Shown here piece by piece: positions 3,785-40,118 of a stretch of 64,000 bases of DNA. The notes beneath the pieces were generated by a model that made no database searches, was not told the DNA's origin, and saw nothing but the letters and a program-made list of their open reading frames with translations. Location of the stretch: NCBI GenBank assembly GCA_041666045.1, contig JBAYHR010000002.1, forward strand, positions 18,773 through 82,772, given 5' to 3'. The first letter of the stretch is position 1. Every line of letters starts with the position of its first letter. The position numbers and the translations under genes were made by a program. The stretch comes from Minisyncoccota bacterium. Its GTDB lineage: Bacteria; Patescibacteriota; Minisyncoccia; Phycocordibacterales; UBA9973.

Positions 3785-5785
3785 TTATAACAAGAAAGCA
3801 ACGATAAGCAAAGCTACGATGTTTAGAATTTTAATCATAGGGTTTATTGCTGGTCCGGCTGTATCTTTATAAGGATCTCCAACAGTATCACCAGTAACAG
3901 CTGCCTTGTGAGCATCTCCACCTTTACCTCCAAAGTTTCCACTTTCAATATATTTCTTAGCATTATCCCAAGCTCCACCACCAGAAGTCATAGAGATTGC
4001 TACGAATAATCCTGTGATGATTGATCCAACTAAAAGTCCACCAAGAGCAACTGGTCCAAGCAAGAATCCTACTAAGATTGGAACAAGTACCGGGATAAGA
4101 GCGGGTACAATCATTTGTTTAATAGCGCTTGTTGTAACTATATCTACGCACTTTCCGTATTCTGGTTTTCCTTCACCTGTCATAATTCCTTTTATCTCTC
4201 TAAATTGTCTGCGAACTTCGTCAACAACTTTTCCTGCAGTTTTTCCTACAGCTTCCATACAAAGCGCTCCGAAATAATATGGTAGAAGTCCTCCTATGAA
4301 TAATCCAACGATAACTTTTGGATTACTTAAATCAAATTTCATAACTTCTCCAGTGATAGCTTTTATTTCTTCTGTATATGCTGCGAACAACACAAGTGCT
4401 GCAAGTCCTGCAGAACCGATAGCATAACCTTTTGTGACAGCTTTTGTAGTATTTCCAACTGCGTCTAATGGATCCGTAACATCTCTAACTTCTTTTGGAA
4501 GTTCTGACATTTCTGCGATTCCTCCAGCATTGTCTGTGATTGGTCCATATGCGTCGATAGCTACGATGATTCCTGTCATCGAAAGCATAGACATTGCTGC
4601 TACTGCGATACCATAGAGTCCACCAAATTTATATGTAATTAAAATTCCAGTAACTATTGTTATAAGAGGAAGAGCGGTTGCTTTCATTGAGATAGCGAGT
4701 CCTTGGATAACATTTGTTCCATGTCCTGATAAAGATGCTTTGGCGATAGATTTTACTGGTGAGAATTTTGTTGAAGTAAAATATTCTGTAATAACAACAA
4801 GAGCTCCAGTTACAAAAAGACCTGTAAGGGCACAAATAAATAAATCCATTACAGAATAATCACTGCCGTTGTTAGACATTAATAATTTTGTGATAGGGTA
4901 GAAAGCTATTGCCGCAAGAATTCCTGATGCGATAAGTCCTTTGTATAGCGCGCCCATTATATTATTTTTCTTTCCTAATTTTACAAACCAAGTTCCGATG
5001 ATTGAACAAATAATTGCAATACCTCCTATTGCAAGAGGGTATAATATTGCTCCGCTGAAATTTACGAAAAGAAGTGATCCGAGTAACATTGTCGCTACAG
5101 ATGTAACAGCATATGTTTCAAAAAGATCTGCGGCCATTCCTGCGCAATCTCCAACATTGTCTCCAACATTGTCTGCTATAACTGCAGGGTTTCTTGGGTC
5201 GTCTTCTGGAATTCCAGCTTCAACTTTTCCAACAAGATCTGCTCCTACGTCAGCTGCTTTTGTAAAAATTCCTCCACCTAATCTTGCAAATACAGAAATA
5301 AGAGATGCTCCGAAACCAAGACCGATCAATGCTTTAATATCACCTGTGATTGCGTACAGTGTTGATACTCCCAAAAGAGCAAGTCCTACTACTAGAAGTC
5401 CAGTAACAACTCCTCCATTAAAAGCAACACTAAGAGCTTGCTTCAATCCACTTTTTGCGGCTTCTGTTGTTCTAACATTTGCTCTCACTGATACATTCAT
5501 TCCGATATATCCAGCGAGTGCTGAAAGTACTGCTCCTAGAATAAATCCAATAGCTGAATTAAATCCTAAACCAAACCATAAAACAAAGAAAAGAATTATA
5601 GCTATAACTCCAATAGTTTTGTATTGTCTATTTAAATAAGCTTTTGCTCCTTCTTTGATAGCTTCTGCGATAGCTTGCATTTTTGCATCACCGGCATTCT
5701 TTTTAAGAATTGATTTAGTAAGCAACAATCCATAGATGATAGCTACAATAGAACTAATAATTGCAAACAATAAATATATATTCAT
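3785..5785 (-). CDS. hppA: Membrane-bound proton-translocating pyrophosphatase (V-type H+-PPase)
   Basis: Motifs [41 protein letters not shown] and [18 protein letters not shown]. Polytopic membrane protein of 666 aa. Confidence 0.95.
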
Positions 5786-5931
5786 CCCGTTTAGAAATTA
5801 AACTATTCGTACATATAATATTTATATATAAAAATAGATAATTCGTTACTTTTAATAATTTGATCCCGTTTTGTGAATTTCTAACGGGATTCATATTTTT
5901 TATTTTTTATTAATAATAATTTTTAATATTT

Positions 5932-7353: not shown

Positions 7354-7650
7354 ATGTTAAGAAATAAAATGTTTGTTATATTTGTGCTAATTTTAATAAT
7401 TGTTTTGATTGGAGTTTATTTTTATTTAAAATCTGTTAAGCAAAATCAAGTGAAACCCATTGATACTATTTTAACAGAGGAAGAAAGAATAAATATTTTA
7501 AATGAATTAAGTTCTGGATCAAACAGTAAACCAATTTCTGAAACAGAACGACAACAGATTCTAAAAGATCTTAATTCTGGGTCTGCCAGTACATCTTTAA
7601 CTGAGGAAGAAAAGTTGTCGATATTAAATTCTTTAAATAGTAAACAATAA
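7354..7650 (+). CDS. Membrane-anchored small protein with three TEEEr-ILN-LNSGS repeats, hypothetical
   Basis: N-terminal TM helix. Three approximately 16-aa tandem repeats are visible in the translation. Confidence 0.5.
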   Translation: MLRNKMFVIFVLILIIVLIGVYFYLKSVKQNQVKPIDTILTEEERINILNELSSGSNSKPISETERQQILKDLNSGSASTSLTEEEKLSILNSLNSKQ

Positions 7651-14399: not shown

Positions 14400-14471
14400 G
14401 TACTTGTCCCGTTAGAAATTCAACTTACGGGAGTAAAGATAAAATTATTAATATTTAAAATTTCTAATGGG

Positions 14472-14942
14472 ATGAATGAAGATAAAATTATAATTTATTC
14501 AGATGGAGCAGCGAGAGGTAACCCAGGCCTTGCAGGTTGGGGATCTGTTTTTATTTTAGGTAAAAAAGTTTTTGAAATTGGCGGAAGAGAAAAACATGCT
14601 ACAAACAATCAGATGGAACTTACAGCAGCGATTGAAGCCTTAAAATATTTAAAGAGACATTCGCATATTGCACAAGGTAAAAAAATAGAATTTTTTTGTG
14701 ATTCAAAATATGTGATTTTAGGAATTACAGAATGGATACAAAATTGGATGAAAAACAATTGGCGCAACGCTGCCAAAAAACCAGTGCTCAATCGTAATCT
14801 TTGGGAAGAACTTTATTTTCTTAATAAAGAATTTAATCCCAAATGGAATTATGTAGAGGGTCATAGTGGTGATAAATATAATGATCGAGCGGATCTTATT
14901 GCTACAAGTTTTGCAGATGACGAACCTGTGGAACTTTTTTAA
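14472..14942 (+). CDS. rnhA: Ribonuclease HI
   Basis: SDGAARGNPG, ELTAAIEAL, GHSGDKYNDRADLIA (DEDD catalytic residues pattern). Confidence 0.9.
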   Translation: MNEDKIIIYSDGAARGNPGLAGWGSVFILGKKVFEIGGREKHATNNQMELTAAIEALKYLKRHSHIAQGKKIEFFCDSKYVILGITEWIQNWMKNNWRNAAKKPVLNRNLWEELYFLNKEFNPKWNYVEGHSGDKYNDRADLIATSFADDEPVELF

Positions 14943-32272: not shown

Positions 32273-32327
32273 ATTGCCTGTCCCGTCAGAGATTTCTTAA
32301 TCTCGTTCGGGATGATATAATTACAGG

Positions 32328-37945: not shown

Positions 37946-39374
37946 TTTTTATATTACAACGACTCTCCCGTATGTTAATTCAGATCCACATGTTGGATTT
38001 GCAATGGAATTTATTCGTGCTGACGTTATAGCTCGATTTAAAAAATTAAATGGTTATGAAGTATTTTTTAATACTGGTACTGATGAGCATGGTCAGAAAC
38101 TTTTTGATTCTGCAAAAAAAGAAGGAAAGGAAGTTCAAGTCTATGTGGATGAATATGCAGAAAAATTTAGAGATTTGAAAAATGTTTTAGGAATTTCAGA
38201 AGATGTTCATTTTGTTCGTACCACAGATGAGCATCATATAAAGTCCGCGCAGGAATTTTGGAAAATTTGTAAAGAGAATGGATATATTTATAAAAAAACC
38301 TATCAGGCAAAATATTGTGTAGGTTGTGAGCTCAATAAGACTGATTCTGAATTAGTAGATGGCGAGTGTCCTATACATCCTGGACGAAAATTAGAATTGA
38401 TTGATGAAGAGAATTATTTTTTTAAGTTTTCAGAATTTCAAAAACCACTTTTAGATTTTTATGTAAAGAATCCTAATTTTGTTGTGCCAGATTTTCGTTT
38501 TCACGAAATAAAAGCTTTTATTGGAGCTGGTCTTGATGATTTTTCAATTTCTCGTTTGAAATCAAAAATGTCATGGGGTGTACCCGTACCTGATGATGAT
38601 AAACATGTTATGTATGTTTGGTTTGATGCGCTTGTTAATTATATTTCTACATTGGGATGGCCAGAGAACAAAGAACAATTTGAAAAGTTTTGGGTGAATG
38701 GAACTCCTGTTCAATATTGTGGCAAAGATAATCTACGCCAACAAACTGCAATGTGGCAAGCAATGCTTATGTCTGTAAAATTACCAAATACGCATCAAGT
38801 TATTGTAGATGGTTTTATAACAGGCGATGGGGGAATAAAAATGTCTAAATCTATTGGCAATGTGGTAAATCCAGTTGAAATAGTAAAAGAATATGGCACA
38901 GATGCATTAAGATATTTTTTACTTCGTGAAGTATCTAGCTTTGAAGATAGTCCCTTTACCATAGAGCGATTTAAAGAAGCTTATAATTCAGGACTTGCAA
39001 ATGGGCTTGGTAATTTATCTTCACGGATTCTTACACTTTCGGAAAAACATTTGGATAAATGTCCAGAGATTCCTGAAAAATTAGATTTTACAGAATATTT
39101 TAAAATATATGAAGATTTTGATATTAAAAAAGTTATGGATTATATTTGGGATAAAATACAAAATCTTGATAAAAAAATTCAGGAAACTGAACCATTTAAG
39201 GTTATAAAAATTGATGAACAAAAAGGAAAAGAAATGATTAAAGAATTAGTTTTAGAATTATATACAATTGCACGAATGTTAAATCCTGTGATGCCAGAAA
39301 CAAATGAAAAATTAAAAAAATTAATTAAAGAAAATAAAAAACCAGAACAACCTTTATTTTTAAGAAAAGAATAG
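37935..39374 (+). CDS. metG: Methionyl-tRNA synthetase (short, no C-terminal tRNA-binding domain)
   Basis: PYVNSDPHVGF (HIGH-region), Cys-x2-Cys knuckle CVGCE...CPIH, KMSKS. Confidence 0.95.
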   Translation: MKNSFYITTTLPYVNSDPHVGFAMEFIRADVIARFKKLNGYEVFFNTGTDEHGQKLFDSAKKEGKEVQVYVDEYAEKFRDLKNVLGISEDVHFVRTTDEHHIKSAQEFWKICKENGYIYKKTYQAKYCVGCELNKTDSELVDGECPIHPGRKLELIDEENYFFKFSEFQKPLLDFYVKNPNFVVPDFRFHEIKAFIGAGLDDFSISRLKSKMSWGVPVPDDDKHVMYVWFDALVNYISTLGWPENKEQFEKFWVNGTPVQYCGKDNLRQQTAMWQAMLMSVKLPNTHQVIVDGFITGDGGIKMSKSIGNVVNPVEIVKEYGTDALRYFLLREVSSFEDSPFTIERFKEAYNSGLANGLGNLSSRILTLSEKHLDKCPEIPEKLDFTEYFKIYEDFDIKKVMDYIWDKIQNLDKKIQETEPFKVIKIDEQKGKEMIKELVLELYTIARMLNPVMPETNEKLKKLIKENKKPEQPLFLRKE

Positions 39375-39377
39375 AAT

Positions 39378-39494
39378 TTGAATTTTCCCCTCCTTGTGGA
39401 GGAGGGGTGCCTAAAGGGCGGGGTGGTGATTTATTAAATTTAGAATTACCACCCCCAACCCCCTCCTTGAAAAGGAGGGGAGTTAAAATACAAA
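39378..39494. repeat. GC-rich three-hairpin repeat, copy 1 (SD/anti-SD-like hairpins cccctcctt-N4-aaggagggg flanking a GGGTGGT...ACCACCC hairpin)
   Basis: 100% identical over ~114 nt to 40005-40118. Confidence 0.9.
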
Positions 39495-39499
39495 ATACA

Positions 39500-39859
39500 A
39501 TGAAAACCATTCATAATATAAAAAAATTATTTTATAGAAGAAAAGAATTAAGAAACAATAGTACTCCTCAAGAAATTTTATTGTGGTTGAAATTAAAAAA
39601 TTCTCAGCTTGGTTTTAAATTTCGTCGTCAGCACAGCATAGGTGGATATATTGCTGATTTTTATTGTCCTTCTAAAAAATTAGTTATTGAAATTGATGGT
39701 TCACAGCATTTTAAAGAAGAAGCAAAAAAATATGATGATATAAGAAGTAATTATTTTGAAGGTCTTGATATAAAAGTTTTGCGTTTTACAAATGGCGAGA
39801 TAAATACTAATATGAGTGGAGTGTTGTTAAAAATAATAACACAATTAAGTAAAAAATAA
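39500..39859 (+). CDS. DUF559-family (Vsr-like PD-(D/E)xK) endonuclease-domain protein (the 39407 upstream extension is a repeat artefact)
   Basis: RRQHSIGGYIADFYCPSKKLVIEIDGSQH...VLRFTNGEI is a typical DUF559 signature. Confidence 0.8.
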   Translation: MKTIHNIKKLFYRRKELRNNSTPQEILLWLKLKNSQLGFKFRRQHSIGGYIADFYCPSKKLVIEIDGSQHFKEEAKKYDDIRSNYFEGLDIKVLRFTNGEINTNMSGVLLKIITQLSKK

Positions 39860-40004
39860 ATTTATGTCAAAGTATGAAAATATTGTAGAAGTTGTTGGTT
39901 CACCAATAATTATAAATAAAATAAAGTTTGATATTGAAACTTTTGATTTTAATAAAAATAATAAATAATTTTTTATGTCAAAATATATTTACAAAAGTAA
40001 AAGT

Positions 40005-40118
40005 GTCGAATTTTCCCCTCCTTGTGGAGGAGGGGTGCCTAAAGGGCGGGGTGGTGATTTATTAAATTTAGAATTACCACCCCCAACCCCCTCCTTGAAA
40101 AGGAGGGGAGTTAAAATA
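40005..40118. repeat. GC-rich three-hairpin repeat, copy 2 (identical to copy 1). It ends 2 nt before the tatD ATG.
   Basis: Direct sequence identity with 39381-39494. Confidence 0.9.

Follow-up and report, generated by a model that had tools for sequence, protein, structure and literature searches.

Inverted repeats that end on start codons

The 64,000-nt stretch of DNA analysed here (the window) belongs to a metagenome contig of 108 kb from a Nomurabacteria-like bacterium of the Paceibacterota, in the Candidate Phyla Radiation (CPR), with a GC content of ~30%. At three of its genes, which encode a membrane H+-pyrophosphatase (H+-PPase), RNase HI (rnhA) and the single-stranded DNA-binding protein SSB (ssb), the sequence TCCCGTTAGAA lies upstream and its counterpart TTCTAACGGGA terminates on the A of the ATG, so that the two can pair as a helix that reaches the initiation codon (Table 1). 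The helix is an insertion and not a conserved leader, and structurally the copies in the window are MITEs (miniature transposable elements with inverted repeats). We consider it very probable (about 85%) that the strands of the helix are the ~13-bp terminal inverted repeats (TCCCGTTAGAAnn / nnTTCTAACGGGA) of a MITE-like, non-autonomous element of the Patescibacteria (CPR), which inserts at start codons and whose likely parent is a ~275-bp unit encoding a GIY-YIG nuclease. Insertion polymorphism, target duplications, family structure, nuclease-coding relatives and an overlap of stop and start codons are documented below.

Table 1. Copies of the element in the window, their parts and the genes on which they end.
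Feature	Position	Strand	Remarks
MITE copy 1, 105 nt	5785..5889	minus	from the T of TCCCG to a terminal A that is the A of the H+-PPase ATG
Copy 1, left terminal inverted repeat	5877..5889	minus	TCCCGTTAGAAAT
Copy 1, right terminal inverted repeat	5785..5799	minus	AATTTCTAAACGGGA, one bulged A
Copy 1, left start-codon copy and duplication	5890..5894	minus	ATGAA; matching right TGAA at 5784-5781
Copy 1, B box	5863..5870	minus	AACGGGAT, internal copy of the right arm, able to pair locally with the left arm
Membrane H+-PPase (host gene)	3785..5785	minus	PF03030
MITE copy 2, 66 nt	14407..14472	plus	ahead of rnhA; arms 14407-14420 and 14459-14472, one G.U pair
rnhA, RNase HI (host gene)	14472..14942	plus	ATG is the native start
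MITE copy 3, 117 nt	41586..41702	plus	between rpsF and ssb
Copy 3, left copy of the ssb start	41581..41585	plus	ATGTA; right TGTA at 41703-41706
ssb (host gene)	41702..42148	plus	in rpsF-ssb-rpsR
Decayed hairpin copy, 32 nt	32281..32312	plus	TCCCGTCAGAGATT tctt AATCTCGTTCGGGA then TGATATAAT; 15 nt before the ATG of the 32328 gene

The initial annotation of this DNA had described the helix at the H+-PPase gene as a 14-bp pairing with one bulged A, had noted the same architecture at rnhA and ssb, and had listed a weaker variant near the 32328 gene; all of these are as described, the last being the 32-nt hairpin. In copy 1 the left arm lies 90 nt upstream of the right arm and the B box begins 6 nt past the left arm, and its end sequences are those of the metagenome copies listed below. 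Copy 2 has its B box (TACGGGA) at 14426-14432 and stands on a start that is evidently the native one, as the N-termini of 120 rnhA homologues align with it; it lacks a target duplication, and its left flank is ACTTG (14402-14406). In copy 3, with its B box (AATGGGA) at 41615-41621, the arms are lengthened to ~22 nt (41584-41607 and 41681-41704), by which the whole AUG becomes paired.

Statistically the motif stands well above background. Within the window TCCCGTTAGAAATT has five matches at up to two mismatches, where 0.95 are expected and none of 100 shuffles reaches five, and AACGGGAT has five against 0.92 expected. The predicted minimum-free-energy fold is the long-range helix at all three genes, with −26.2 kcal/mol (z −3.6) for the H+-PPase leader, −19.7 kcal/mol (z −3.4) for rnhA and −47.5 kcal/mol (z −7.0) for ssb, in which the entire AUG lies within the helix. 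When the sequence upstream of each open reading frame (ORF) start in the window was scanned without gaps for a complementary 13-mer, the rnhA and ssb copies alone rose above AT-rich noise, copy 1 escaping the scan through its bulge. No further copies and no nuclease gene were found in the 20 kb that extend the window along the contig. The whole window gave no Rfam match at the gathering score, and in E-value mode only sub-threshold generic hairpins; no tRNA or tmRNA genes were found in it, and scans of the three loci for an internal promoter returned promoter-like sites at the level of shuffled sequence.

Empty sites and target duplications

The ssb locus was compared across 80 species-level relatives, in 77 of which the rpsF-ssb spacer could be read. 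In 74 of the 77 this spacer is short and lacks the motif, which is present in three relatives only (L032, L075 and L080; loci outside the window are designated in this way throughout). The closest syntenic relative, L224, whose SSB is 92% identical, has a clean empty ssb site: the same spacer text (taattattaaaattaattt...) is followed by a single ATGTATTTA, where the window reads ATGTA[TCCCG...CGGGA]TGTACTTA. The hairpin at 32281-32312, which lies downstream of recO, is also absent from L224, which reads ..gtagttATGATATAATcataagATG. For rnhA, the gene table of the closest relative, whose homologue is 88% identical, leaves 4 nt between the genes, compared with 72 in the window. The polymorphism runs in the other direction as well, the element being present at metG in L018, L022, L059 and L066 and at rpsR in L032, while the same sites in the window are empty.

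At all compared sites except rnhA and L018, the five bases to the left of TCCCG are the start of the gene on the right. This gives an ATGTA duplication at ssb in the window, L032, L075 and L080, and an ATGAA duplication at the H+-PPase gene, at metG (L022, L059 and L066) and at rpsR (L032), so that the filled sites read ATGTA|T...A|TGTA at ssb and ATGAA|T...A|TGAA at the H+-PPase gene. Since the five left bases repeat the gene's own start, they constitute a target-site duplication that tracks the host gene. The view, put forward in the initial annotation, that this does not look like a mobile repeat has therefore to be abandoned in the face of the empty sites and gene-tracking duplications, together with the shared subfamilies, the nesting and the nuclease-coding units described in the following sections.

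Start-codon preference in a flank-blind sample

Metagenome contigs were searched with the pattern TCCCGTTAGAA-N(40-70)-TTCTAACGGGA, which requires perfect 11-nt ends and places no constraint outside the element. It was found on at least 120 contigs in at least 126 copies. In 93 of the 126 listed copies the terminal A and the next two bases form an ATG with which an ORF begins that is at least 60 aa long or runs off the contig, and one further listed copy precedes rpmJ (38 aa). The 93 gene-start copies all differ in sequence. Gene starts make up 1.4% of all NTG sites, and 9.6% of the NTG sites that are non-coding or gene-start; relative to the latter figure the excess has P of about 1e-66. The recurrence of the arm pair and its tie to initiation codons, as stated in the initial annotation, are thus borne out.

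The preference goes beyond what the pentamer alone would give. Of the listed copies with a perfect ATGAA duplication, 45 of 48 lie on gene starts, compared with 34% expected from tolerated ATGAA sites (P 3e-18). Perfect ATG-type 5-mers flank 66 listed copies on both sides, and 62 of these show the start-codon pattern of copy 1. The duplication is mostly 4 bp long (TGAA is the commonest, with TGAG, TGGA, TGTA and TGCG also seen) and occasionally 3 or 5 bp. Five start-codon copies have GTG (L097, L139, L191 and L192) or TTG (L123) on the left and ATG on the right, which means that the terminal A belongs to the element and turns the start codon into ATG. The only informative positions of the target logo are A-T-G-A-A, and no extended motif beyond ATGAA was found within ±20 nt. 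Copies away from start codons are duplicated on TTTA, TAAA, TTGA, CCCG or CTCG, or on CGCG in the case of an element nested inside another (L137), and five of the non-start copies adjoin an upstream stop codon.

The targeted genes are housekeeping genes, including many ribosomal protein genes of the S10/spc cluster, topA, ruvC, ftsW, pheT, murG and dnaA; more than 60 different host genes are hit, they share no common function, and many copies lie within tight ribosomal-protein operons. The hosts range from 30 to 60% GC and include Kazan, Paceibacterota and other Patescibacteria. Two other explanations of the distribution were considered and rejected. Leaderless transcription starts are not the target, as −10-like boxes at leaderless distance lie upstream of the left start copy in 18% of the targeted genes, compared with 27% of control genes. 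Carriage by phages is likewise not indicated: viral contigs (IMG/VR) gave two short copies only (L222:3126-3204 and L223:4675-4757), both off start codons and with flanking tetramers that match partly (TTTA/TTAA in L222, TTTA/ATTA in L223), and no full-length unit was found in them.

Anatomy of the short copies

Short copies measure 62-117 nt, and the spacing of the half-sites across the family runs from 4 to >250 nt. Terminal inverted repeats are present in 93 of 93 oriented copies, and their stem consists of 11 fixed base pairs and two covarying ones: at position 12, 46 copies have A-T and 44 have G-C, position 13 takes four different pairs, and Watson-Crick pairs are kept at these positions in 91-92 of the 93. 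The covariation of the arms that the initial annotation had named as a check is seen within the stem of the family; the orthologous leaders for the most part (74/77 at ssb) lack the element.

The interior, on the other hand, is hypervariable in both length and sequence, and the 93 interiors cannot be aligned outside subfamilies. These subfamilies recur at unrelated genes and in unrelated genomes, each in one orientation relative to the host gene. That of the ssb copy is represented in L032 (two copies), L125, L145, L162 and L197, and its extended arms (GCCGCGGTCGCAG ... GACCGCGACCTGC) are common to copies at rpsR, ftsW, ruvC and other genes. Some interiors from hosts that use Shine-Dalgarno (SD) sequences carry AAGGAG ~14 nt before the ATG.

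The B box, an internal copy of the right arm, is found in all three window copies and in 13 of the 93 family copies (at most one mismatch in 8 nt), and internal copies of the left arm in none of the 93. Its mismatches are all transitions, of which five lead to G.U and two to A.C, with none of the 16 possible disruptive substitutions. The two mutually exclusive foldings proposed in the initial annotation can be drawn for all three copies in the window, and at this strict threshold the local one is seen in a small part of the family.

In-frame insertions within genes are, like the nested copy, further signs of mobility. A 68-nt element with a 4-bp duplication adds 72 nt, or 24 codons, and such stop-free insertions occur in frame at in-frame NTG codons within genes (L153:5248-5315 in atpG and L191:1321-1388 in a GIY-YIG ORF); a database member of the protein cluster of this atpG is called as a single 360-aa protein. 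In two cases a pair of elements shares one duplication, namely L133:4818-4899 (ATGGA[T..A]TGGA[TCCCG..) and L163:118-482 (ATGAA[T..A]TGAA[TCCCG..), the latter array consisting of a short copy followed directly by a nuclease-coding copy. A subclass without duplication has the flank ACTTG (window 14402-14406, L085, L087, L186 and L199), ACCTG (L118) or CCTG (window 32277-32280). All six members of the ACTTG subclass carry a B box, and in them CUUGU can pair with AUGA, which gives a helix over the whole start codon.

Nuclease-coding relatives

A search for more widely spaced ends retrieved ~275-bp units with the same ends and one ORF each (L163:203-482, L124:5367-5642 and L191:1121-1450). The ORF encodes a GIY-YIG domain, with PF01541 matches that exceed the gathering score (E 1.8e-17 and 3e-15), and its closest solved structures are the UPF0213 proteins 1zg2 (E 3.4e-9) and 1ywl. 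By these matches the protein of the full-length unit is a bona fide member of the GIY-YIG superfamily, from its UPF0213/Slx1-like standalone branch; this minimal standalone Slx1-like branch has been described by Dunin-Horkawicz et al. (PMC1564403). A database search gave at least 1655 homologues, typically of 86 aa, which are named 'GIY-YIG nuclease family protein' or 'excinuclease ABC subunit C' and come from Terry-, Taylor-, Lloyd-, Kaiser- and Nomurabacteria. Across 86 homologues with a mean identity of 71%, the columns of the catalytic Tyr (of GIY and YIG), Arg, His and Glu are conserved to at least 97%.

The ends of the element are written into the protein itself. The FLSLTG end of the nuclease is the translated right repeat (TTC CTA TCT CTA ACG GGA), and a C-terminal ..LTG motif, mostly ..SLTG or ..TLTG, is present in 97 of the best 120 homologues. 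The MNPVR start, seen in 10 of the best 120, is the host ATG copy followed by the left repeat.

Six full-length copies could be read with their flanks (ends TCCCGTTAGAGAT / ATCTCTAACGGGA), one of them on the complete 619-kb genome CP060230.1. Four (L202, L205, L213 and L214) are duplicated on the ATGAA or ATGA of the next gene, and two (L211 and L212) on the preceding gene's TAA, which lies 1-3 nt ahead of the next ATG. In all six the stop codon of the nuclease ORF is the TGA or TAA that comes after the terminal A, and the gene calls of the four start-codon copies extend 4 nt into the next gene. The TTCCTA tract that precedes the right arm in the parent is retained in some short copies (L066 and L174), which fits an origin of the short form by internal deletion. 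Taken together, the parent is likely a ~275-bp unit that encodes only an 86-aa standalone GIY-YIG nuclease.

Other GIY-YIG ORFs were also noticed beside palindromes. At L074:10440-10760, a frameshifted GIY-YIG ORF lies between ssb and rpsR with different inverted repeats (ACCCTGCACATAAATT / AAATTTATGTGCAGGGT), and more are seen beside other palindromes in L095, L103, L158, L184 and L199. Other end families of the same architecture thus seem to exist.

A possible route of insertion at start codons

The filled and empty sites show an element that inserts at the pentamer A|TGAA with a duplication of 3-5 bp, mostly 4 bp (TGAA), the pentamer being in surviving copies almost always a host start codon. 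The terminal A and the duplicated TG rebuild the ATG and leave the host ORF intact, and the original start codon, with the upstream expression signals, remains on the left. In the full-length unit the nuclease ORF stands between this original start codon and the regenerated one; translation from the left start, or from an ATG that the element brings with it a little further on, within a few nucleotides, would yield the nuclease, whose stop is the host TGA in ATGA or the duplicated TAA, an arrangement as in translationally coupled genes. In short copies the left start opens a short ORF (M-N-P-V-R..) through the left arm. We infer that both forms are moved by the GIY-YIG protein, which may act on the stem base as a structure-specific nuclease. 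If the coding form relies on host initiation signals, this would select for sites at start or stop codons, in one orientation.

The sequestration of the AUG is a by-product of the inverted ends and the site of insertion. Expression of the host gene may be kept by ribosomes that set out from the left start, read through the left arm, probably melt the helix, stop on the real AUG or close to it, and re-initiate; the B box would then have a secondary role in keeping the left arm from re-pairing. The right arm of the short copies offers an outcome in each frame, with a TAA at −7 in frame one, an ATGA overlap in frame two and an in-frame N-terminal extension in frame three. Of 76 upstream ORFs (uORFs), 56 come to a stop no further than 30 nt from the AUG, overlap the AUG or are fused to the gene. 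A design for in-frame read-through was considered and rejected, as the inter-ATG frames of the copies with stop-ended uORFs (27, 25 and 13) show no preference; another 11 copies have no stop and are read through in frame. An effect on translation is likely, as a consequence of the insertion and not as the element's reason for being.

Several points weigh against this explanation. The scan, with its perfect ends and its interior of 40-70 nt, gives among the matches listed a sample that favours intact copies, and the null models rest on crude ORF-based gene calls. The restriction of the logo to ATGAA leaves the start-codon excess of the non-coding copies without a mechanistic explanation. The duplication varies in length (3-5 bp) and is missing from the subclass with the ACTTG flank, to which the rnhA copy of the window belongs. 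At ssb, the uORF from the left ATG stops ~60 nt before the AUG, so that simple coupling may not suffice there. No nuclease-coding copy was found in 84 kb of the window genome, and the GIY-YIG enzymes known to us are homing or repair nucleases and not transposases.

Alternative explanations

The strongest competitor is the cis-acting translational switch of the initial annotation, in which the left arm pairs either with the B box, leaving the AUG free, or with the start region, hiding it, be it as the original function or as an exaptation by the host. Both pairings are available in all three window copies; B boxes are always sense copies of the right arm (13/93 compared with 0/93 for the left), with mismatches that are all transitions; and in the ACTTG subclass, where six of six members have a B box, the helix covers the whole AUG. 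On the other hand, the element is missing from orthologous leaders, the B box is at a strict threshold a minority feature, no conserved interior able to sense a signal and no Rfam match is found, and the targets are unrelated housekeeping genes, while the duplications and the nuclease-coding relatives account for the architecture without any regulation. Thus, of the switch the burial of the AUG stands, the sensing of a signal in the hypervariable interior is unsupported, and we judge the proposal as a whole improbable.

Slightly less probable still is an RNA processing site, at which an RNase III-like enzyme would cut the 13-25 bp helix and release an mRNA starting near the AUG. For many genes of the window no SD sequence is seen and a TATAAT-like box precedes the ATG by ~6 nt, the stems are both long and stable, and the hairpin MITEs of the Correia type are substrates of RNase III. 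However, leaderless-type −10 boxes are not enriched at the targeted genes (18%, with 27% in controls), most copies have 13 bp only, and processing would explain the tolerance of the element and not its origin.

The two remaining explanations can be set aside as very unlikely. A DNA operator, with the half-sites TCCCGTTAGAA bound by a transcription factor of a regulon, would agree with the strong conservation of the 11-nt sequence across hosts of 30% to 60% GC, but not with a half-site spacing of 4 to >250 nt, with the covariation at positions 12-13, which points to pairing rather than sequence recognition, or with the insertion polymorphism, the duplications and the functionally unrelated targets. 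An intrinsic terminator of the upstream gene abutting the next start codon would fit the hairpin of left arm and B box shortly past the upstream stop in the window copies, but there is no T tract, a terminator scan of the three loci gave 0 sites, the left arm has its conserved partner at the ATG of the next gene, and many copies lie within tight ribosomal-protein operons.

Other repeats and gene starts in the same DNA

A further candidate element was seen near tatD, where a 134-nt direct repeat, 93% identical, occupies 39360-39493 and 39988-40121 of the window. Each repeat copy is a GC-rich multi-hairpin unit that terminates in AAAATACAATGA; an ORF for a DUF559 protein (Vsr-like endonuclease), 39501 to 39859, has its ATG at the end of the first, and tatD has its ATG at the end of the second. 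In L224, metG is followed directly by tatD, without the 134-nt repeat or the DUF559 ORF. The arrangement suggests that another endonuclease gene, unrelated to the first, inserted at a start codon here and duplicated the leader.

The rpsF-ssb spacer and other leaders hold further short repeat families, of which the first is an inverted repeat ('aagtttataaagt ... actttcaactttataac'), the second is CTAG-rich ('gctagtgactagctgctagaacctag') and the third reads 'aattacgaatt'. Such repeats were seen in the rpsF-ssb spacers of L225/L227/L228, L020, L025, L028, L033, L034, L062 and L067, as well as in those of L027, L057, L060, L066 and L074 and in the window at 42150-42190 and 1353-1395. The rpsF-ssb spacer thus appears to be a hot spot for small elements.

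At most gene starts of the window SD sequences are nearly absent (for example at 7354, 10060, 12750, 14975, 21321, 25853 and 42485), and in many of its genes a TATAAT-like hexamer ends ~6 nt before the ATG, a pattern that suggests mostly leaderless mRNAs.

Relation to known elements and significance

Among known elements, the family resembles bacterial MITEs whose ends form hairpins, such as the Correia elements (CREE), which are also short and non-coding, with terminal inverted repeats, a short target duplication, many gene-adjacent copies and mRNA hairpins able to change expression. In Neisseria, however, Correia elements duplicate TA and lie at varied distances from genes, whereas the present family sits on the start codon itself, with the ATG rebuilt by its terminal A and a hypervariable interior, and its coding relatives carry a GIY-YIG nuclease, not a DDE transposase. 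Like the palindromic elements of Rickettsia (RPE), it is a small palindromic element of reduced genomes that can insert in frame into ORFs (L153 and L191 here). RPEs are mostly intragenic or intergenic, and we know of no start-codon rule and no coding parent for them, whereas 74% of the listed copies of the present family lie on start codons. Palindrome-associated transposable elements (PATEs) and the REP-RAYT system are further examples of short, gene-adjacent hairpin repeats, there mobilised in trans by a small nuclease. Yet PATEs (IS200/IS605) and REP-RAYT depend on HUH (Y1) enzymes, subterminal hairpins and a one-sided target of 4-5 nt without duplication, whereas here duplications are the rule and the enzyme is of the GIY-YIG family.

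With the GIY-YIG homing genes (I-TevI and T4 Seg) the coding form shares the character of a selfish unit whose sole protein is a GIY-YIG nuclease and which lies at the boundaries of host genes. Homing endonucleases, in contrast, have long sites, are copied by recombination at the same locus and show neither inverted ends nor target duplications, whereas the present family uses many unrelated loci and a pentamer target and has inverted repeats and non-coding derivatives. Its protein is, moreover, of the minimal UPF0213/Slx1-like kind without a DNA-binding extension (PMC1564403). In the same bacterial group, GIY-YIG ORFs have been described within insertions, other than introns, of CPR rRNA genes and 'outside the context of homing' (Tsurumaki et al. 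2024, PMC11270868); for these insertions that paper reports no inverted repeats, duplications or link to start codons. In the full-text literature searched, also for the motif itself, we found no description that combines terminal inverted repeats and duplications around a unit encoding only a GIY-YIG protein, insertion at start codons that rebuilds the ATG, and the stop/start overlap with the host gene. The initial annotation, which knew of no described element of this kind, was probably right in this respect.

It is possible, at odds that we would put a little under even, that the family represents a new class of prokaryotic transposable element, whose sole protein, a GIY-YIG nuclease of minimal, Slx1-like form, would act on the hairpin or cruciform made by the element's own ends, and which would live by 'translational hitch-hiking' at start and stop codons. 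By this we mean that it would borrow the initiation signals of the host, return the ribosomes through the ATGA overlap and restore the ATG by means of its last base.

Should the GIY-YIG protein move the elements, this nuclease family would join the short list of enzymes of DNA transposition, and the unit of ~275 bp would be among the smallest that are mobile and autonomous. A great many small proteins annotated 'GIY-YIG' or 'UvrC-like' would be re-labelled, and if the reading as a new class is true, thousands of CPR genes named 'GIY-YIG nuclease family protein' or 'excinuclease ABC subunit C' would be transposase genes. For the biology of these bacteria, the family would be a mobile element whose insertion site follows the translation map of its host and which is nearly scar-free for the host gene. 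It would explain the odd 'leaders' of 60-120 nt, the start-codon hairpins, the MNPVR.. extensions and the mis-called starts of CPR genomes, and its copies may serve as natural constructs for the study of initiation by SD-poor CPR ribosomes downstream of a stable hairpin.

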